In this document: in pieces, positions 1 to 8,888 of the stretch | How positions within the stretch are numbered: position 1 is the stretch's first letter | Layout: each line of letters begins with the position of its first letter | UHGV virus genome: UHGV-0205859 | Length of the DNA: 15,795 bases | Direction: 5' to 3' (one strand) | From: a virus | Translations under genes and position numbers: made by a program | The notes under the pieces: model-generated | What the model was told of the DNA's origin: nothing | Databases searched by the model: none | The model's input: the letters and a program-made list of their open reading frames with translations, nothing else

Positions 1-410
1 ACCGTGATGGTACGGGTATCTGGACCATCTGCCGTGGTGCCACAATGGTGGACGGTAAGCCTGTCGTTCCTGGCATGAAGCTGACGAAGGAAAAATGCGA
101 CCGAGTGAACGCCATCGAACGGGATAAGGCGCTGACGTGGGTGGAGAAAAACATCAAAGTGCCACTGACCGAACCGCAGAAAGCGGGCATTGCGTCATTC
201 TGTCCGTACAACATCGGGCCTTCGAAATGCTTCACCTCAACGTTTTACCGGAAACTGAACGCCGGAGACCGGAAAGGTGCATGTGCTGAAATCCGCCGGT
301 GGATATATGACGGTGGCAAAGACTGCTGTATCCGCTCAAATAATTGCTACGGTCAGGTATCCCGGCGTGACCAGGAAAGTGCGCTGGCGTGCTGGGGAAT
401 CGACAGATAA
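1..410 (+). CDS. R: Phage endolysin (lysozyme, glycoside hydrolase family 24), 5'-truncated by the window edge
   Basis: Frame 3 is open from nt 3 (RDGTGIWTICRGATMVDGKPV...) and ends at TGA 408-410. The C-terminal region (FYRKLNAGDRKGACAEIRRWIYDGGK) resembles lambdoid prophage lysozymes of the RrrD/phage 21 R type as recalled. It sits immediately upstream of Rz/Rz1. Confidence 0.85.
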   Translation, partial: RDGTGIWTICRGATMVDGKPVVPGMKLTKEKCDRVNAIERDKALTWVEKNIKVPLTEPQKAGIASFCPYNIGPSKCFTSTFYRKLNAGDRKGACAEIRRWIYDGGKDCCIRSNNCYGQVSRRDQESALACWGIDR

Positions 411-629: not shown

Positions 630-749
630 ATGAAAGGCATTGAGGTGGAGACGCCAGCAAGTCTGGATTTAACAAGAGCGGCAGCAATTGCCATTCGTAT
701 TGTGGCAATTGCTGTTCTTGTCTGGGCAATCCCGTTGGTGGTGATATGA
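630..749 (+). CDS. Hypothetical 39-aa small membrane peptide ([39 protein letters not shown]), not in the ORF track because it is under 60 aa
   Basis: ATG at 630 is preceded by GAGG at 617-620. Its stop TGA (747-749) overlaps the Rz start (ATGA at 746-749), suggesting translational coupling. Acidic N-terminus followed by a roughly 20-residue hydrophobic stretch. An alternative in-frame GTG start at 591 lies downstream of GGGAGG. Confidence 0.3.
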
Positions 750-1213
750 ATCGTGTGCTGTATGGCGTGCTTATTGTCCTGCTGCTTGGTTGTGGAGCGA
801 TGTGGCTGGCAACAAACCATTACCGTGATAACGCCATTACCTACAAAGCGCAGCGCGATAACAAAGCCAGTGAACTGGAGAAAGCGAATGCAACCATTAC
901 TGACATGCAGCAGCGCCAGCGTGATGTTGCTGCACTCGATGCAAAATATACAAAGGAGTTAGCCGATGCAAAAGCTGAAAATGAAAATCTGCGCGCTGAT
1001 GTTGCCGCTGGCCGCCGCAGCCTGCGGGTCAACGCCACCTGTGTGCCCGCCACAGATAAAACCACCGGCACCACCCGCATGGGTAATGCAACCCGTCCCC
1101 GACTGGCAGACGCCGCTCAACGGAATTATTTCACCCTCAGAGAGCGACTGATGACGATGCAGAAACAACTGGAAGGGGCACAGCTCTACATCAGTGAGCA
1201 ATGCCTCAGATAA
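746..1213 (+). CDS. Rz: Rz i-spanin (inner-membrane spanin subunit)
   Basis: 155 aa with an N-terminal transmembrane segment and a coiled-coil periplasmic domain. The [19 protein letters not shown] and [20 protein letters not shown] motifs match lambda Rz as recalled. Confidence 0.9.
966..1151 (+). CDS. Rz1: Rz1 o-spanin (outer-membrane lipoprotein), nested in the +1 frame inside Rz
   Basis: 61-aa ORF wholly inside Rz in another frame. It has a signal peptide with a lipobox-like LAAAACGS and a proline-rich mature region ([27 protein letters not shown]) closely matching lambda Rz1 as recalled. Confidence 0.85.
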
Positions 1214-2229
1214 AAACCGGTAAGGGATAATCCGCTTAAGATTTACCGGTGGCGAAGAGAGCCAAGGCATCAAATTACGCGATTACCTGTAGCAGTACAA
1301 TATATGGTTTACGTTTTCTTATTAATTCCAGATGTATGCCTGTGCGCCGTATCGTCGCCGTATTCCTGCATTAACAGAGACCGCAGCCCTTGCGGGATAC
1401 TCCTCTGCGCGAGTGTGCGGGTATAATCAAAAACGATGCACACCGGGTTTTGCTGCGAGAACTGAACGGGGCGCGTATTGTATCCTCATAATTGCCCGCC
1501 CAGTGCGATGGTGGAAGAAACCGGAATGATGAATTGTGAATGCAAAATATGGTTCTGCATTGAATAATACAGGCATTGTTTCCTGTTTACATCCAGAACA
1601 TATTTAAATATGCCTGCCTGGGACAGAGTAAAGTGGCTACGGAAAAAAGGTATGCTTCCGGATAAATGTTTTTTGATAACCAGTTTTGTCCAGATATTGT
1701 TTGATCTGTGGTTTATATAAACAGGTCTTTTTTTGGTCTGTACCGTGATCATACTATGGTTATGTGTGGTAAAGCGTATATTCCCTGTAGACAGGAAATA
1801 AAAACAATGCGAGATATCATTTTTTTTTAAGATAGTCAGTGACGGAAATAATATCGCTATTGTGTGATGAAATAAGCAAGGATATAACAGAGCTAAGCCG
1901 GTTGTTCTCTGTGGGGACACAATCTGGTGGCGATAAATCAGAATGCGTGATGTAAAGATTAAGCATGTAAAACCATGGTGTTTAACTGAAGGTTACTGTG
2001 CGGCGGGAAAATAATGAAGTGAAAAGCTAATGTCTATTTGTTATTTTCGCATGATAAAGCAGAGGTATTATTTTTTTGCTAATTTATTCTTTTGATATGT
2101 CTTATCTGTATTTGTGGTTGGTTGTAAACCTCTATTGCAACTGACATCGTCAGCAATGTTGCATACTCATTCAGGTGCAACATGGCGTGGAAGAAAGAAT
2201 ACAGGTATGAGGATATTTGAGTGGATGAT

Positions 2230-2256
2230 AAAAAAAAGCCGCAGGTGGTATGCGGC
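2230..2256 (-). terminator. Candidate rho-independent terminator on the minus strand
   Basis: Plus strand reads A8 (2230-2237) then GCCGCA (2238-2243), a 7-nt loop, and TGCGGC (2251-2256). On the minus strand this is a perfect 6-bp GC-rich stem followed by eight T residues. Confidence 0.5.
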
Positions 2257-2375
2257 ATGAAATGGCACGAATCAGTGGATATATCTTTTTTCGTTTGTAT
2301 TTTTATCTTATTTCCAGAGGTGTAATCAATTCGAAAAATACGTGAGAACAGAGCGTATATTTTCGACCTTTTTAT

Positions 2376-2432
2376 GGGTCCTCCTGGTGGGGTCGGCCTG
2401 TCCACGGGGCGGGTCGGCGCGGAAAAAGGCGC
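2376..2432. other. Candidate cos region (cosN-like GC-rich block) for cohesive-end packaging
   Basis: A sharply GC-rich island inside AT-rich DNA, about 190 bp upstream of the terminase small-subunit start, matching lambda's cosN-to-Nu1 spacing. ACGGGGCGGGTCGGCGCGG (2404-2422) resembles the lambda cos sequence ACGGGGCGGCGACCTCGCGGG as recalled. A second GGGGCGGC occurs at 2542-2549. Confidence 0.4.
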
Positions 2433-2608
2433 ATTTTTGTGATTTTATCGCCATCATCATCATGTCTGTAACTTATTGTTTTAAATTGTTTTGATGCAAA
2501 AAAGATGATGAATGTGGTTGATTTTTGTTCGACATCTTTGTGGGGCGGCATTTCTTTACAAAAAAACAGAGTCACTTCTGTTTTGCGGGTTACGTGGAGG
2601 ACGTGTAA

Positions 2609-3085
2609 ATGGACGGCGAGCTGAAAAATATGAAGTTAAATATTAATCAACTGGCATCCCTTTCAGGCCTGCACCGGCAGACTGTTACCGCAAGAATGGC
2701 AGATGTTCCTCTTGCACCAGGCAGCAATGAGAAGAAAAAACTTTATTTCCTGACGGATTTGATTACCTCGCTGCTGGAAAAGCCACCATCCACCGAAGAT
2801 GAGGAGATGAATCCACACGATCGCAAGGCATGGTATCAGTCCGAGCGCGAGCGCCTTAAATTTCAGCATGAAACTGTTCAGCTTGTGCCCGTCAGTGATG
2901 TCAGGCGGTCGTTTTCCGTCGTGGTGAAAGCCATTGTGCAGATACTGGAAACCTGGCCTGACAGGCTGGAAAGGGACAGGGGGTGGACTGCATCACAACT
3001 GAACGAAGTGCAGATCGTTGTTGATGAGATCCGTGACACGCTGGAAAAGGCAGTGATTGCCTGCTGTGATGAGGCTGATATGTGA
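2609..3085 (+). CDS. Terminase small subunit (DNA-recognition subunit, Nu1-like role)
   Basis: 158 aa, GGAGG at 2596-2600. N-terminal helix-turn-helix-like segment (LNINQLASLSGLHRQTVTARMA). Its stop overlaps the large-subunit GTG start (GTGA). Position directly upstream of a GpA-type large terminase. Confidence 0.75.
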   Translation: MDGELKNMKLNINQLASLSGLHRQTVTARMADVPLAPGSNEKKKLYFLTDLITSLLEKPPSTEDEEMNPHDRKAWYQSERERLKFQHETVQLVPVSDVRRSFSVVVKAIVQILETWPDRLERDRGWTASQLNEVQIVVDEIRDTLEKAVIACCDEADM

Positions 3086-5205
3086 ATCCGGTTAACGAGT
3101 GCCATAGCCGCGCATCCGATATCTGGCGCGAAGTGGCCTCGCTGTTTCGCCCACCCAGCCGGTTACCTGTGGTGGAAGCCATCAGGCGTTATATGCGGGT
3201 ACCACGGGGAGCCAATACATCCGGTCCGTGGGAGTCATCGCTGACGCCCTATATGATAGACCCCATTAATACATTATCAGCCCGTGAATATGACGCGGTG
3301 GTGTTTGTCGGACCTGCGCGAACGGGCAAAACCGAGGGGCTGATTGACGGCTGGATTGTGTACGGCATCATCTGTGATCCGGCTGACATGCTGGTGGTGC
3401 AGATGACTGAGACGAAGGCGCGTGAGCATTCCAGAACGCGTCTTTCCAGGACGTTTCGCCACAGTCCGGAGGTCAGTAAGCGCCTCAGTCCTTCCCGTAA
3501 CGACAACAACGTCCACGACAAAATGTTTCTTGACGGCTCATTCCTGAAAATTGGCTGGCCGTCGATCACCGTATTTTCCTCCTCGGATTACCGTCGTGTG
3601 GCGCTGACGGATTATGACCGTTTCCCTGAAAACGTGGACGGGGAAGGGGATGCCTTCACCCTGGCCTCAAAGCGTACCACCACCTTTATGTCCTCCGGGA
3701 TGACCCTGGTTGAGAGTTCACCGGGGCGGGATATTACTGACACCAAATGGCGTTGTGGTGGCGCACATGAGGCACCGCCAACAACGGGGATCATGTCACT
3801 GTATAACCGGGGAGACCGCCGCCGGTGGTACTGGCCGTGTCCGCACTGCGGGGAATATTTTCAGCCGGTGATGGATAACATGACCGGTTACCGGAATAAC
3901 CCCGATTTTGTGGCTGCCGGTCAGGCTGCCCGTCTGATGTGTCCACACTGTCGCGGGCTGATTGCCCCGGAGCAGAAACGCGAACTGAATAACATGGGGA
4001 TCTGGCTGCGGGAAGGTGAGCGGGCGGCGGCGGATGGCAGTATCACTGGAACGCCACGAAATTCCAGGATAGCGAGCTTCTGGCTGGAGGGGCCAGCTGC
4101 CGCGTTTCAGACCTGGGAACAACTGATTTTTAAGCTGCTGTCGGCAGAAGAAGAATATGAGCGAACCGGCAGTGAAGAGACCCTGAAAGCGGTGGTGAAC
4201 ACCGATATCGGACGGCCTTATCTGCCCCGTTCAGCCACGGAACAGCGCAAAAGTGAGCTGCTTGAACAGCGTGCGGAGCCGGTTCCACTGCGATGTGTGC
4301 CGGATGGCGTGCGCTTCATTGAGGCAACGGTTGACGTACAGGGCGGTAAAAACAGCCGTTTTGTGGTGCAGATCACCGGATACGGAGAGCAGGGAGAACG
4401 CTGGATTGTTGATCGCTACAACATCCGGCATTCACTGCGCAGCAGCCCCAACGGTGAAAGCCTGCCGGTTGATCCGGCTGCGTATCCGGAAGACTGGACG
4501 TTGTTGCTGACGGATGTCTTCCATAAAACCTGGCCGCTGGCTTCCGATCCGGATGTTCGTATGCGTCTTATGGCGATGGCCGTGGATACGGGCGGTGAAG
4601 CAGGGGTGACGGATAATGCCTATCGTTTCTGGCGGCAGTGCCGCCGTGACGGACTGGGTAACCGGGTGTTTCTGTTCAAGGGCGATGGCCTGCGTCGCGA
4701 CAGACTGATTAACCGTACCTTCCCGGATAACACCGGCAGAAGTGCCCGCCGTGCCAGGGCCAGTGGTGATGTTGCCCTGTGGCTGGTGCAGACCGATGCG
4801 TTTAAGGATCGGGTGAATAATGCGCTGTGGCGTGACACGCCGGGACCGAATTATATCCACTTTCCTGACTGGCTGGGGCGGTGGTTTTTCGATGAGCTGA
4901 CCTATGAGGAGCGCGGCAGTGACGGAAAATGGCGAAAGCCGGGCAGGGGCGCTAACGAAGCATTTGACCTGCTGGTCTACGCGGATGCGCTTGCCGTTCT
5001 GCATGGCTACGAAAAGATCCGCTGGCCGTCAGCACCTGACTGGGCACAACGGGAAACGTGGCTTGTCGGTCCGGAGGGGCGTTCAGATGCGACAACGCCC
5101 ACGGCGTCGTCAGGAAGGAAAGAAAAATGCCGTCACCGGCAGGAAAAACTGCGCACAGAGCGGGCAGAGGATAATCCGTGGGTAACATCAGGAGGCTGGT
5201 TGTGA
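3082..5205 (+). CDS. A: Terminase large subunit, lambda GpA family
   Basis: 707 aa with GTG start overlapping the small-subunit stop. Walker A motif GPARTGKT (aa 77-84). Size and position are typical of GpA-type terminases of cos phages. Confidence 0.9.
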   Translation: MNPVNECHSRASDIWREVASLFRPPSRLPVVEAIRRYMRVPRGANTSGPWESSLTPYMIDPINTLSAREYDAVVFVGPARTGKTEGLIDGWIVYGIICDPADMLVVQMTETKAREHSRTRLSRTFRHSPEVSKRLSPSRNDNNVHDKMFLDGSFLKIGWPSITVFSSSDYRRVALTDYDRFPENVDGEGDAFTLASKRTTTFMSSGMTLVESSPGRDITDTKWRCGGAHEAPPTTGIMSLYNRGDRRRWYWPCPHCGEYFQPVMDNMTGYRNNPDFVAAGQAARLMCPHCRGLIAPEQKRELNNMGIWLREGERAAADGSITGTPRNSRIASFWLEGPAAAFQTWEQLIFKLLSAEEEYERTGSEETLKAVVNTDIGRPYLPRSATEQRKSELLEQRAEPVPLRCVPDGVRFIEATVDVQGGKNSRFVVQITGYGEQGERWIVDRYNIRHSLRSSPNGESLPVDPAAYPEDWTLLLTDVFHKTWPLASDPDVRMRLMAMAVDTGGEAGVTDNAYRFWRQCRRDGLGNRVFLFKGDGLRRDRLINRTFPDNTGRSARRARASGDVALWLVQTDAFKDRVNNALWRDTPGPNYIHFPDWLGRWFFDELTYEERGSDGKWRKPGRGANEAFDLLVYADALAVLHGYEKIRWPSAPDWAQRETWLVGPEGRSDATTPTASSGRKEKCRHRQEKLRTERAEDNPWVTSGGWL

Positions 5206-5414
5206 GTATTGATGATGTCAGGAACATGATACAGCGGTATCGCGATGCGGAAATGGCGGTACTGGAGGGAAAATCTGTCACGTTTAACGGGCAGCAACTG
5301 ACGCTGGAAAGTCTGTCACAGATCCGCGCCGGTCGTCAGGAGTGGGAGCGAAGACTTACGGCGATGGTGAACCGCAGACGCGGGGAGCCCGGGTTTAAAC
5401 TGGCGAGGTTCTGA
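5202..5414 (+). CDS. W: Head-tail joining protein gpW
   Basis: 70 aa from GTG 5202, with AGGAGG at 5190-5195 and overlap with the terminase stop (GTGA). The C-terminal RRRGEPGF resembles lambda W RRRGPAGF as recalled. The ORF-track start at 5178 is an upstream in-frame GTG without a Shine-Dalgarno sequence. Confidence 0.8.
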   Translation: MSIDDVRNMIQRYRDAEMAVLEGKSVTFNGQQLTLESLSQIRAGRQEWERRLTAMVNRRRGEPGFKLARF

Positions 5415-6919
5415 TGGCGATTAGCGATGATGTGATTGGTTTTTTCTCGCCCGGCTGGAAAGCAGCGCGATTACGCTCAAGGGCGTTAATTATGGCCTAT
5501 GAGGCCGTGAAACCCACCAGGACGCATAAAGCACGCCGGGAAAACCGTTCTGCCGATCAGCTCAGTAAATACGGTGCGGTTTCCCTTCGGGAGCAGGCCC
5601 GCTTTCTGGATATCAATCATGACCTGGTGATAGGCGTGTTTGACAAGCTGGAGGAGCGGGTGATTGGTGCGAAGGGGATCACCGTTGAGCCTAATCCGGT
5701 GATGAAAAACGGGGAGATTGCGGCGGAGCTGGCAGCGGATATCCGGCGGTTGTGGGCAGAATGGTCTGTCAGTCCGGATGTGACCGGACAGTACACCCGT
5801 CCCATGCTCGAACGCCTGTTACTGCGTACCTGGCTGCGTGACGGGGAGGTGTTTGCGCAGATGGTCAGTGGTGCGGCAAACGGTCTTAAGCGGTCTGCCG
5901 GTGTGCCTTTCTGGCTTGAGGCGATGGAGCCGGATTTTGTGCCCATGCGCAGTGATGAGTCTGCCGGACTGAATCAAGGCGTTTTTCTGGATGAGTGGGG
6001 GAGGCCGAAAAAATATCTGGTTTACAAAAATTATCCGGTTTCCGGGATACAGAGTGATACCAAAGAGATCGCCGCAGACAAAATGGTGCATCTGAAATTC
6101 ACCCGCCGCCTGCACCAGACGCGTGGTGCGTCCATGTTGTCCGGTGTGATGGTGCGTATCAGTGCGCTTAAGGAATATGAAGATGCCGAACTGACAGCGG
6201 CGCGTATTGCTGCGGCGCTGGGGCTGTATATCCGTAAGGGGGATGGACAGGATTACGACGATCAGGGAGCAGACAAAAAAGAAGAGCGGGAAGTGCATAT
6301 CACCCCGGGCATTATCTATGACGATTTGCGTAAGGGTGAGGATATCGGCATGGTCAAATCCGACCGTCCTAATCCAAATCTTGAAAATTTTCGTAATGGT
6401 CAGTTGCGTGCGGTGGCTGCAGGCAGTCGTCTGAGCTTTTCCAGTACCGCACGCAACTACAATGGCACCTACAGTTCACAGCGGCAGGAGCTGGTCGAGT
6501 CCACCGACGGTTACCTTATCCTGCAGGACTGCTTTATTGGCGCGGTAACCCGCCCGGTGTACCGTGCATGGCTGAATATGGTGGTTGCTGCCGGTCTGCT
6601 GAAAATCCCGTCTTGCCTGGATATGAAGACGTTATATAACGCGACATATTCAGGTCCGGTGATGCCGTGGATAGATCCGGTTAAGGAGGCTGAAGCCTGG
6701 CGGATACAGATCCGGGGTGGTGCCGCAACGGAATCCGACTGGGTACGTGCCGGCGGACGTCATCCGGATGAGGTTAAACGTCGCCGCAAGGCTGAAATTG
6801 ATGAAAACTGCAGACTGGGGCTGGTCTTTGATACTGACCCCGTCAACGACAAAGGAGGCAACAGTGCCGGAACTGAACGACAGCGTCAACAGGCCACCGA
6901 CAGCCAGCATGAAGAATAA
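5414..6919 (+). CDS. B: Portal protein (lambda gpB family)
   Basis: 501 aa; ATG overlaps the W stop (TGATG). Size and position between W and the capsid gene fit a portal; weak motif resemblance to lambda B. Confidence 0.85.
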   Translation: MAISDDVIGFFSPGWKAARLRSRALIMAYEAVKPTRTHKARRENRSADQLSKYGAVSLREQARFLDINHDLVIGVFDKLEERVIGAKGITVEPNPVMKNGEIAAELAADIRRLWAEWSVSPDVTGQYTRPMLERLLLRTWLRDGEVFAQMVSGAANGLKRSAGVPFWLEAMEPDFVPMRSDESAGLNQGVFLDEWGRPKKYLVYKNYPVSGIQSDTKEIAADKMVHLKFTRRLHQTRGASMLSGVMVRISALKEYEDAELTAARIAAALGLYIRKGDGQDYDDQGADKKEEREVHITPGIIYDDLRKGEDIGMVKSDRPNPNLENFRNGQLRAVAAGSRLSFSSTARNYNGTYSSQRQELVESTDGYLILQDCFIGAVTRPVYRAWLNMVVAAGLLKIPSCLDMKTLYNATYSGPVMPWIDPVKEAEAWRIQIRGGAATESDWVRAGGRHPDEVKRRRKAEIDENCRLGLVFDTDPVNDKGGNSAGTERQRQQATDSQHEE

Positions 6920-8888
6920 ATCCTGGTTCAGGATGCAGGCTGGGGAGCCGGGTGACGCGGATATTTATATTTATGACGAGATTGGTTTCTGGGGAGTTAC
7001 CGCGAAGCAGTTTGTCTGCGATCTGAATGCTCTGGGTGATATCACCCACATTAATCTCCATATCAACTCACCGGGTGGCGATGTCTTTGAAGGCATCGCC
7101 ATTTTTAATGCCCTGAAAAATCAGGGGGCGACCATTACCGTGTATGTGGATGGCGTTGCCGCATCGATGGCATCCGTGATTGCGATGGCCGGTGATACGG
7201 TCATTATGCCGGAAAATGCTTTCATGATGATCCATAAGCCATGGGGTTTCAGTGGGGGGGATGCTGAGGATATGCGCAGTTATGCCGATCTGCTGGATAA
7301 AGTCGAATCGGTACTGTTGCCAGCCTATGCGCAAAAAACAGGAAAAACCACCGATGAAATTGCCGCCATGCTGGCGGATGAGACCTGGATGTCAGGTGCC
7401 GAGTGTCTGGCACACGGATTTGCTGACCAGGTGACGCCAGCCGTTAAGGCAATGGCATGTATTCAGTCAAAACGTACAGAGGAATTTAAAAAGATGCCGG
7501 AATCCATCCGAAACATGATTACTCCGCCACGCAACAGTGCCCCGCGTGATACCACAGTGACAATCCCTGCACCGGCGGTAACAGAACCATCACCGGTACC
7601 GGCAGTGTCTGATGAGGAGACCATTCGCGCTGGTGTCCTGGCTGAGCAGAAAGCCCGCATGTCAGGCATTAACGATCTGTTTGCCATGTTTGGCGGTCGC
7701 TATCAGACGCTTCAGGCACAGTGCGTGGCCGATCCTGACTGTTCGCTGGAAATGGCCCGTGAACGTCTGCTGAATGAAATGGGTAAGGAATCCTCGCCGA
7801 CCAACAAAAACACACCGGCCCATATTTATGCCGGAAACGGTAATTTTGTTGGAGACGGGATCCGCAAGGCGCTGATGGCCCGCGCCGGATTTGAGACTAC
7901 GGAGAAGGATAATGCCTATAACGGTATGACCCTGCGTGAATGCGCCCGTATGTCACTGACAGAGCGGGGGATCGGGGTGGCCAGTTATAACCCCATGCAG
8001 ATGGTGGGGCTGGCGCTGACGCACAGTACCTCAGATTTTGGCAATATTCTGCTGGATGTGTCGAATAAGGGGTTAATCCAGGGCTGGGAGGAATCAGAAG
8101 AAACCTTCCAGAAATGGACCCGCAAAGGTCGCCTGTCTGACTTCAAAACGGCATACCGTGTGGGGATGGGGGGATTTGGCTCTCTGCGTCAGGTGCGGGA
8201 AGGGGCAGAGTACAAGTACATCACCACCTCAGATCGTAAGGAGACCATTGCACTGGCGACCTACGGGGAAATTTTCTCCATCACCCGTCAGGCCATTATC
8301 AATGATGACCTGAATATGCTGGTTGATGTCCCGATGAAGATGGGGCGTGCCGCGAAAGCGACGATTGGTGATTTGGTCTACAAGGTGTTAACGGATAACC
8401 CGAAACTGTCAGACGGTAAGGCGTTGTTCCATGCCGATCACAAGAATATTGCCACGGGCGGGATTTCCGTTTCGGGGCTGGATGCGGCACGTCAGATGAT
8501 GCGCCTGCAGAAAGAGGGCGATCGTGCGCTGAATATCCGTCCGGCCTTTATGCTGGTACCGGTGGCGCTGGAGACGGTGGCAAACCAGACCATCAAGTCG
8601 GCCAGTGTGAAAGGGGCGGATGCAAACGCCGGTGTCATTAACCCGATCCAGAACTTTGCCGAAGTGATTGCGGAAGCTCGTCTTGATGCGGCAGATCCGA
8701 AAACCTGGTACCTGGCTGCGGCACAGGGGACCGACACCATTGAAGTGGCCTGGCTTGATGGTGTGGACACTCCCTACATTGACCAGCAGGAAGGCTTCAC
8801 CACTGACGGTATCGCCACAAAAATCCGTATCGATGCCGGTGTGGCACCGCTTGACTGGCGCGGACTGGTGCGTTCAGCCGCTGCCTGA
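6909..8888 (+). CDS. Fused prohead protease (ClpP/S49-like), scaffold-like linker and major capsid protein
   Basis: N-terminal region carries ClpP-like protease motifs (DIYIYDEIGFWGV, INSPGGDVFEGIAIFNAL, ASMASVIAMAGD), then a Pro/Ala/Glu-rich linker, then a roughly 330-aa C-terminal capsid-like domain. Start ATG 6909 is chosen just upstream of the protease motifs; ATG 6933 and the ORF-track start 6717 are alternatives. Confidence 0.8.
   Translation: MKNKSWFRMQAGEPGDADIYIYDEIGFWGVTAKQFVCDLNALGDITHINLHINSPGGDVFEGIAIFNALKNQGATITVYVDGVAASMASVIAMAGDTVIMPENAFMMIHKPWGFSGGDAEDMRSYADLLDKVESVLLPAYAQKTGKTTDEIAAMLADETWMSGAECLAHGFADQVTPAVKAMACIQSKRTEEFKKMPESIRNMITPPRNSAPRDTTVTIPAPAVTEPSPVPAVSDEETIRAGVLAEQKARMSGINDLFAMFGGRYQTLQAQCVADPDCSLEMARERLLNEMGKESSPTNKNTPAHIYAGNGNFVGDGIRKALMARAGFETTEKDNAYNGMTLRECARMSLTERGIGVASYNPMQMVGLALTHSTSDFGNILLDVSNKGLIQGWEESEETFQKWTRKGRLSDFKTAYRVGMGGFGSLRQVREGAEYKYITTSDRKETIALATYGEIFSITRQAIINDDLNMLVDVPMKMGRAAKATIGDLVYKVLTDNPKLSDGKALFHADHKNIATGGISVSGLDAARQMMRLQKEGDRALNIRPAFMLVPVALETVANQTIKSASVKGADANAGVINPIQNFAEVIAEARLDAADPKTWYLAAAQGTDTIEVAWLDGVDTPYIDQQEGFTTDGIATKIRIDAGVAPLDWRGLVRSAAA

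Follow-up and report, generated by a model that had tools for sequence, protein, structure and literature searches.

The 15,795-nt stretch of DNA analysed here (UHGV virus genome UHGV-0205859, one strand, referred to below as the window) represents the late region of a lambdoid prophage as judged by its Pfam matches. At approximately positions 2230–2352 its minus strand carries a conserved cassette in which a promoter-like region, a short predicted non-coding transcript and a terminator follow one another (Table 1). The explanation put forward, to which about an even chance is given, is that this cassette is a prophage moron for a small RNA (sRNA) of approximately 65 nt of the Hfq-dependent type, with an architecture similar to that of the AgvB and AsxR sRNAs but without homology to them.

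A terminator facing late transcription

On the minus strand, positions 2256–2230 read GCCGCA TACCACC TGCGGC TTTTTTTT, with the arms GCCGCA (2256–2251) and TGCGGC (2243–2238) enclosing the loop TACCACC (2250–2244) and a tract of eight T residues (2237–2230) following the second arm. An earlier note on this DNA, made from its letters alone, had described a 6-bp GC stem with eight T residues on the minus strand, oriented against late transcription, and the sequence reads exactly so. The stem consists of six perfect pairs, five G-C and one A-U, and folding of the hairpin alone gave −8.9 kcal/mol. A consensus scan found it to be the sole terminator-like site in 1500–3200. Under a strict definition (a perfect 6-bp stem with at least five G/C, a loop of 3–8 nt and at least seven T in the next eight bases) it was also the one site found in the whole 15.8-kb window when both strands were scanned. 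A site of this kind was present in 2 of 300 dinucleotide-preserving shuffles of the window and in 0 of 2000 shuffles of the AT-rich stretch 1950–2600. The hairpin with its T8 tract is a canonical terminator, far beyond what is expected by chance. Since the plus strand has A8 before the hairpin and ATGAAATGG after it, the hairpin is one-directional and can terminate leftward transcription only.

Selective conservation and boundaries of the cassette

Homologues of the cassette fall into four sequence types at approximately 73% identity. Type A comprises the window and the prophages of M1/M3, M8, O158:H23 and 2012C-4221, while type B, about 73% identical to type A, is found in A8, STEC299, ECOR29, 8178 and others. 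Type C is represented by A34, and type D is a remnant among insertion sequence (IS) elements on plasmid pCRST010. Conservation was tabulated over 13 distinct sequences and was found to be concentrated in particular blocks: the −35-like TTGATT is invariant at 6/6 positions, the −10-like (G/T)ATAA(A/G) at 4/6, the 13-mer ATTCGTGCCATTT preceding the hairpin at 12/13 and the hairpin at 19/19, its loop included. Between these blocks, 5/16 positions of the spacer and 15% of the columns in the 5′ part of the predicted RNA are invariant, with 0–13% in the flanks. The polymorphisms within types A and B, which are independent of the comparison between types, agree with this pattern. None of the 15 falls in the 44 nt made up by the −35, the −10, the 13-mer and the hairpin and all 15 fall in the 48 interspersed nt (binomial P ~6e-5, for regions whose limits were partly set after the data were seen).

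The T-tract is T6–T8 in types A–C and a degenerate CTTTTTG in the type D plasmid remnant, so that a G+C-rich hairpin followed by a U-tract, as expected of an intrinsic terminator, is kept in types A–C. In type B one inserted A pairs with the first base of the loop and adds a seventh pair. The hairpin, the T-run and the −35 are kept in related prophages wherever the region has homologues (the T-run being degenerate in type D), and it is on the conservation of the hairpin and the T-run that the earlier note had made its proposal depend. In the pCRST010 copy (L008 2671–3110) the loop is enlarged to 9 nt and the T-run is broken. On this large plasmid the copy adjoins a truncated phage gene (DUF1378) and is surrounded by fragments of IS66, IS3 and IS21; it appears to be a prophage fragment that was carried onto the plasmid.

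The boundaries of the cassette were also examined. On the left, homology ends with the end of the T-run, and does so in three different genomic contexts. On the right, homology between types A and B stops at 2352, approximately 57 nt upstream of the predicted start, which corresponds to the length of a promoter. With a covariance model made from the RNA part, exactly one copy was found in each cassette-bearing locus and no match in lambda, VT1-Sakai or 2017.17.03CC.

The promoter-like region

The hexamer TTGATT, which the earlier note had identified as the complement of 2324–2329, is the one that proved invariant in all types. It is followed by three A/T-rich candidates for a −10, namely GATAAA (2307–2302) with a spacer of 16 nt, TAAAAA with a spacer of 18 nt and AAAAAT with a spacer of 19 nt. 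At the 16-nt spacing both TTGATT and GATAAA match the consensus (TTGACA and TATAAT) at 4/6 positions. The distance of 16 nt from the −35 to the −10 block is constant. Hexamers that are conserved and keep their distance while the spacer sequence between them drifts form a promoter-like pattern, as would be expected of a sigma-70 promoter, and the hexamers show no polymorphism within types.

Upstream of the −35 lies a further conserved block, CACGTATTTTTCGAA. This could be an UP element, an activator site or the plus-strand −10 (AAAAAT, 2334–2339) of a divergent promoter. Read on the plus strand, the sequence to the right of TTGATT has the form xAAxAT, of which the key A and T are invariant, located 17 nt after TTTCCA/TTTACT, and the O158 version of this block was called as a plus-strand promoter by the scan. 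Which strand the upstream block serves is to a degree uncertain, a divergent rightward promoter being possible. Readings of the conserved blocks as sigma-54, sigma-E, CII-type, IHF or CRP sites were considered by eye and did not fit; TGGCAC has no −12 TTGC partner, and the motif WATCAAnnnnTTR was likewise not matched.

The predicted RNA

Transcription on the minus strand from approximately 2295 to 2230–2232 would yield an RNA of 64–66 nt. The minus strand has no credible open reading frame (ORF) there, in agreement with the earlier estimate of a transcript of roughly 60–70 nt without a plausible ORF. The minus-strand ORFs over the region (108, 45 and 67 amino acids) had no Pfam match, and in the other cassette types each of the three minus-strand frames is interrupted by stop codons. 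The predicted RNA would begin with a part that is variable in sequence and length, with a fraction of A of 0.36–0.57 across all types. The 13-mer that follows is unpaired in the consensus fold and without polymorphism within types. The predicted RNA as a whole (2295–2230, 66 nt) folds at −12.5 kcal/mol, and the consensus structure across types consists of the terminator hairpin only.

An Hfq-binding module is described as a U-rich stretch before the terminator hairpin together with a long U tail, as far as can be taken from the work quoted in the reference list of PMC4104026. The predicted RNA has the corresponding arrangement CCAUUU(C/U)-hairpin-U7/U8: the 13-mer ends in AUUU(C/U), and U7–U8 follow the stem, a tail of at least about 7 U being required. 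The 13-mer is also both conserved and unpaired, as a seed for pairing would be. A conserved unpaired block adjoining a conserved terminator is a pattern like that of an sRNA 3′ domain. A longer RNA was also considered, in which a block upstream of the −35 would pair with the 13-mer (CACG/CGTG in most types, with type C having CACA/TGTG). The absence of a conserved promoter further upstream and the break of this pairing in type D speak against it, and it was not retained.

Distribution and insertion of the cassette

The 158 bases around the feature matched 23 of 5,426 complete Escherichia coli genomes. The adjoining cos/terminase segment is common to 417 genomes, most of which are without the cassette, and this marks the cassette as a rare element of accessory nature, not as a conserved component of the phage. 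The genomes of enterohaemorrhagic E. coli (EHEC) Sakai and of the EDL933 type are without it. BLAST against 50,697 phage records, lambda included, gave no match, and against the PLSDB plasmids gave one, the degenerate remnant. Two pattern scans over one genome for each of 185,579 species gave 0 matches. Three contigs were found in one metagenome scan and a few near-identical copies in four viral-contig scans, with one metagenome contig being identical to the window over this segment. No variants beyond the four sequence types were seen in these species-genome, metagenome, viral-contig, phage and plasmid searches. That such an element is not part of the lambda map, as the earlier note had remarked, is confirmed by BLAST, alignment and the covariance model, none of which gave a lambda homologue.

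It should also be noted that approximately half of the 23 cassette-bearing E. coli genomes are from rodents. The mouse strains are M1, M3, M8, A8, 3-72, 8178, DEF2, DEF10 and FEA3, to which one marmot and one kangaroo-rat isolate are added. This may point to a prophage lineage that circulates in E. coli of the rodent gut, or to a bias of sampling.

The surroundings of the cassette vary. It follows a DUF1398 gene in the window and in type B and stands directly after Rz/Rz1, with no DUF1398 gene, in O158, 2012C and A34, and the terminase module downstream of it is of the DUF1441 type, of the lambda type or of a third kind. Wherever the prophage context is intact, no other unit stands between the cassette and cos, and its orientation is the same, against late transcription. 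In VT1-Sakai and in 2017.17.03CC, the latter being the closest cassette-less relative (93% identical to the window), Rz is followed by approximately 200 bp and then by cosQ. At this spot between Rz and cosQ the O158-type prophages have a 165-bp insertion that holds the cassette, flanked by an imperfect direct repeat G(G/T)TGGAAGAA(A/T)C. The two copies of this 13-nt repeat (L002 2963–2975 and 3145–3157) read GGTGGAAGAAACC and GTTGGAAGAATCT, and a single copy is present in VT1-Sakai and 2017.17.03CC, which suggests insertion by microhomology or illegitimate recombination. The cassette is thus present in some phages, absent at the same position in close relatives and equipped with transcription-like signals of its own, as is expected of a moron. 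A role in DNA packaging was considered and rejected, as the type B cassette is approximately 250 bp from cosQ and 49 bp are interposed in the O158-type prophages.

Proposed function and alternative explanations

From the sequence we infer the following course of events. A weak promoter of the sigma-70 type (TTGATT, 16–19 nt, an A/T-rich −10) would fire in the lysogen, constitutively or in dependence on a factor, and start transcription at approximately 2295. Directed away from cos and opposed to the late operon, transcription would end at the GCCGCA/TGCGGC hairpin and U8. The RNA of approximately 65 nt that would accumulate would consist of the variable A-rich 5′ part, the unpaired 13-mer AUUCGUGCCAUUU, the hairpin with its CCACC loop and a long U tail. 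Hfq would bind the 3′ module, and the 13-mer, the type-specific 5′ part or both would pair with host or prophage RNAs. In a lysogen, with its late operon silent, the most likely mode of action for such an RNA would be in trans, as with AgvB and AsxR. The word antisense in the earlier note is correct in that the RNA would oppose the late transcript, but the spacer there is without an annotated gene and a trans-acting role is at least as likely. Every prediction of the sRNA explanation that could be put to a comparison of sequences came out in its favour.

Several observations weigh against this explanation. In none of the four types does the conserved −10 hexamer end in T; AAAAAT has this final base but is located at the 19-nt spacing, in types A and D. 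In the Hawley–McClure compilations the final T is reportedly found in approximately 96% of sigma-70 promoters. The site departs from what is expected of sigma-70 hexamers, namely near-consensus sequences separated by 16–18 nt and a −10 with A as its second and T as its sixth base. The consensus scan called no promoter here, since the hexamers at 16–18 nt end in A instead of T. The promoter proposed in the earlier note therefore stands as regards the hexamers 16–19 nt downstream of TTGATT and their spacing, fixed in four types, but not as a canonical site. In type B the only promoter called is a different one, TTAACA-18-TACAAT on the minus strand. Part of its −10 is supplied by the invariant TTGATTAC, and an RNA started from it would measure approximately 100 nt; this promoter is not conserved in the other types. 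With the non-canonical −10 and this better-scoring upstream promoter in type B, the 5′ end of any RNA is uncertain.

Other such points concern the RNA itself. The z-score of the fold of 2295–2230 is only −2.0, and all six stem pairs are invariant, hence there is no covariation for or against the structure. The invariance of the loop is odd for a plain terminator and could reflect a function of the plus strand. Rfam gave no family match, either over the whole window at gathering thresholds or over 1400–2700 at E-values up to 10. A duplex scan of the 39 unpaired nt against both strands of the window gave no trans target beyond chance, the best site outside the cis locus being at −25.1 kcal/mol against −26.7 ± 2.3 kcal/mol for shuffled queries. 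There are also four sequence types in all, which gives low statistical power. The individual Rfam matches seen (Arrc14 and CyaR among them) were at chance level and terminator-driven, and were discarded.

The non-canonical, uncalled −10 and the absence of covariation in the stem are likewise in line with a rather unlikely alternative, in which the hairpin would be an orphan terminator or insulator that stops stray leftward transcription into the DUF1398 gene or antisense to the lysis genes, with no functional RNA being made. The blocks upstream would then be DNA-level sites, either bound by a regulator or nucleoid protein or belonging to a divergent rightward promoter, for which the plus-strand xAAxAT block and its call in O158 can be adduced. 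However, the consensus scan found no minus-strand promoter-like site in 2256–3200 that would need insulation, the invariant unpaired 13-mer and the invariant loop are given no role, and the promoter-like part travels with the cassette in every context, even where DUF1398 is missing. The DUF1398 gene also enters a much less credible proposal, that the cassette is its leader or attenuator, with transcripts from TTGATT normally stopping at the hairpin and regulated read-through expressing the gene. In the window and the type B loci this gene does follow on the same strand after approximately 265–310 bp, and the entire 950-bp block is inherited together, at 81% identity. The O158-type, 2012C-type and A34 cassettes are nevertheless without it, so that read-through there would run antisense into Rz. 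Folding predicted no alternative antiterminator pairing, and DUF1398 has a conserved promoter-like site of its own downstream of the terminator.

The invariant loop is explained by one model only, an improbable one, in which the two strands form a cis-antisense pair like a type I toxin–antitoxin system or SymE/SymR. The plus strand has a micro-ORF (MARISGYIFFRLYFYLISRGVINSKNT) whose ATG lies within the 13-mer, with GGTGG, which resembles a Shine–Dalgarno (SD) sequence, in the hairpin loop (2244–2248) 13 nt upstream. The minus-strand RNA, with its promoter inside this ORF, would block translation of the micro-ORF (18–30 codons, MARI followed by an aromatic/hydrophobic tail) from the late transcript through loop–loop contact. 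The loop would be invariant as the GGUGG SD and the 13-mer as the start and first codons, a layout that matches SymE/SymR. Of the plus-strand frames, only the MARI frame stays open for 18 codons or more in each of the four types, for which shuffling of the variable part gave a chance of ~0.014, a value to be read with a threshold set post hoc and lineages that are related. Types A and D also share the ending LYFYLIS and stop, the Ser codon being TCC in one type and AGC in the other. Against this, length shifts of 1–2 nt between types place the conserved nucleotide blocks in different frames, the stop moves (18, 21, 27 or 30 codons) and the changes within type A are mostly non-synonymous. The plus strand is 41–46% T, which gives hydrophobic residues in any frame, and the distance of 13 nt from SD to AUG also counts against the model. 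A type I toxin mRNA would be expected to have its own promoter, and none is conserved for it within the cassette; no conserved plus-strand promoter was found to the left either, where homology ends at the A-run beside the hairpin. A similarly small chance is given to a two-strand device in which the minus RNA of the lysogen would silence the late micro-ORF by a perfectly complementary loop–loop contact, the loop and the 13-mer being invariant because both strands use them. If true, this would be an undescribed type I toxin–antitoxin-like or lysis-timing module at the right end of lambdoid genomes.

If the sRNA proposed here is made, it would represent a new, unrelated family among the few prophage-encoded regulatory RNAs, and the cos-proximal end, besides the site downstream of pR′, would carry accessory genes that encode RNA only. 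The four variants, with a shared 3′ domain and differing 5′ parts, would form a series for asking what selects targets. In view of the rodent-derived genomes it could matter for gut colonisation by those mouse commensal E. coli strains that serve as models. If no RNA is made, the cassette is still a clean case of selective conservation that needs another explanation.

Genomic context

The window is approximately 92% identical over 98% of its length to the prophage of mouse E. coli M1 and M3, and its features are listed in Table 1. ORF 6717–8888 is a single frame of 723 amino acids with a ClpP-like prohead protease domain and a major capsid protein domain, a known arrangement which RefSeq annotates in related prophages. 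The position of cos was obtained from two alignments, one with the M8 prophage, which switches to a lambda-type cos exactly here, and one with the right end of lambda. The latter alignment bears out the location near cos given in the earlier note. With cosQ and cosN so placed, the feature is the last item on the right arm of the phage and its putative promoter points away from cos.

Table 1. Coordinates of the cassette, its parts and the neighbouring features (window positions unless a locus is named)
Feature	Position	Strand	Basis or remark
Whole conserved cassette (promoter-like region, short non-coding transcript, terminator)	~2230–2352	minus	Homology boundaries
Conserved block CACGTATTTTTCGAA upstream of −35	2330–2344	minus	9/16 columns invariant, against 13% further out
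−35-like TTGATT	2324–2329	minus	6/6 positions invariant in all types
−10-like A/T stretch GATAAAAAT	2299–2307	minus	(G/T)ATAA(A/G) conserved; not called by consensus scan
Variable A-rich 5′ part of predicted RNA	2273–2295	minus	15% of columns invariant, indels
Invariant single-stranded 13-mer ATTCGTGCCATTT, 3 nt before hairpin	2260–2272	minus	Candidate seed and U-rich element of Hfq module
Terminator hairpin GCCGCA/TACCACC/TGCGGC	2238–2256	minus	Pattern scan, folding, conservation
T8 tract, U-tail of the predicted RNA, directly 3′ of stem	2230–2237	minus	Sequence, consensus scan
Overlapping micro-ORF MARISGYIFFRLYFYLISRGVINSKNT	2262–2345	plus	ATG inside invariant 13-mer; status uncertain
Lysozyme fragment	45–410		
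Rz	746–1213		
DUF1398 accessory gene	1486–1920	minus	Pfam
Promoter-like site of DUF1398 gene, TAGACA-17-TATTTT	2036–2008	minus	Also conserved in type B loci (L005 2789–2817)
cosQ-like GGGTCCT	2376–2382	plus	Alignment
cosN cohesive end GGGCGGGTCGGC	2407–2418	plus	Alignment
DUF1441 small-terminase-like gene	2609–3085		
gpA-type large terminase	3082–5205		
Lambda-family portal	5414–6919		
ClpP-protease/capsid fusion	6717–8888		
GATAA(T/C)CATTATC	L016 2553–2570 (lambda 48452–48469); L017 2487–2503; L019 1929–1945; L002 3170–3186		

As the promoter-like site of the DUF1398 gene is itself conserved, this gene gives the impression of another accessory unit, independent of the cassette and in tandem with it. 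Between this site and the terminator lies a cluster of inverted repeats (2141–2186; TTGCAAC / GTTGCA / TGCAAC and CTGAC-ATC-GTCAG). The stretch is unannotated, and the cluster, whose left half is different in the type B loci, may act as an operator or form an RNA structure. An exact 8-nt direct repeat, GGGTCGGC, at 2390–2397 and 2411–2418 brackets the predicted cosN nick site.

Directly to the left of cosQ, the motif GATAA(T/C)CATTATC was found in lambda, VT1-Sakai, 2017.17.03CC and the O158-type prophages. The lambda version reads GATGATAATCATTATC and, compared with GATAATGATAATCATTATC, which we take to be the Fur-box consensus, agrees at 13/13 positions in the right part and at approximately 16/19 overall. 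In O158 a plus-strand promoter was called over this motif (TTGATA-17-CATTAT, L002 3157–3185). The window is without the 49-bp piece that bears the motif, which would fall between 2375 and 2376.

Comparison with known systems

The closest parallel in architecture is provided by the AgvB/AsxR anti-sRNAs (EcOnc01–03; Rfam RF02702 and RF02703) of EHEC lambdoid prophages, which are 51–60 nt long with a conserved 3′ region of approximately 42 nt and a variable 5′ end, and which occupy an insertion site in an orientation convergent to late transcription (Tree et al., 2014; PMC4104026). The cassette resembles them in the very short RNA predicted (approximately 65 nt here), the location in an insertion-tolerant site of the late region, the Rho-independent terminator, the variable 5′ part and the occurrence of related but non-identical members in different prophages. 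It differs in that AgvB/AsxR are found downstream of pR′, between Q and the lysis genes, as a convergent sRNA pair, whereas a single copy is present here beside cos, between the lysis or DUF1398 genes and cos. There is no sequence similarity, the RF02702 and RF02703 models giving no match at E-values up to 10, and AgvB/AsxR were validated by Hfq cross-linking, Northern blot and 5′ rapid amplification of cDNA ends, whereas the cassette is known from its sequence.

The Pas sRNAs (PasA–D) of enteropathogenic E. coli and EHEC prophages are also Hfq-associated products of intergenic genes on lambdoid prophages, with an uneven distribution among strains and with sequence variants (Zhu, Shabalina and Storz, 2026; bioRxiv 10.64898/2026.05.13.724894). 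Unlike the cassette, PasA, PasC and PasD are located by the Q, holin and lysozyme genes and PasB inside the structural operon, and their matches number hundreds to thousands, as against 23 genomes. Protein-coding morons of lambda-like phages, as defined by Juhala et al. (2000), such as bor, lom and the DUF1398 gene (lambdap78/ybcV), are likewise extra units between late genes that have their own promoter and terminator, are absent from close relatives, are transcribed against or independently of the late operon and are presumably expressed in the prophage. The payload here differs, being a predicted RNA of approximately 65 nt, and the transcribed strand carries no credible ORF.

The small RNAs of lambda (oop, the paQ antisense RNA, 6S, PreS/LPR1 and LPR2) are also short, with their own promoter and terminator, and some bind Hfq, but they are encoded elsewhere: oop maps near cII, PreS lies between ea10 and ral, and LPR2 and 6S are found where the late operon starts (bioRxiv 10.1101/2024.10.31.621285; PMC12197685). 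Ligation of interacting RNAs followed by sequencing (RIL-seq of Hfq) in lambda placed phage sRNAs nowhere but in the early left operon and at the beginning of the late one (bioRxiv 10.1101/2024.10.31.621285). This map agrees with the lack of the cassette in lambda. In type I toxin–antitoxin systems and SymE/SymR, an antisense RNA of 60–80 nt has its promoter inside a small ORF and covers the ribosome-binding site and start of that ORF. The micro-ORF opposite the cassette differs from these in having neither frame-preserving conservation nor a promoter of its own. No description of an sRNA gene adjoining cos was found in the literature, and the candidate presented here would belong to a well-known kind, the sRNA accessory genes borne by prophages, in a position that has not been reported for them.

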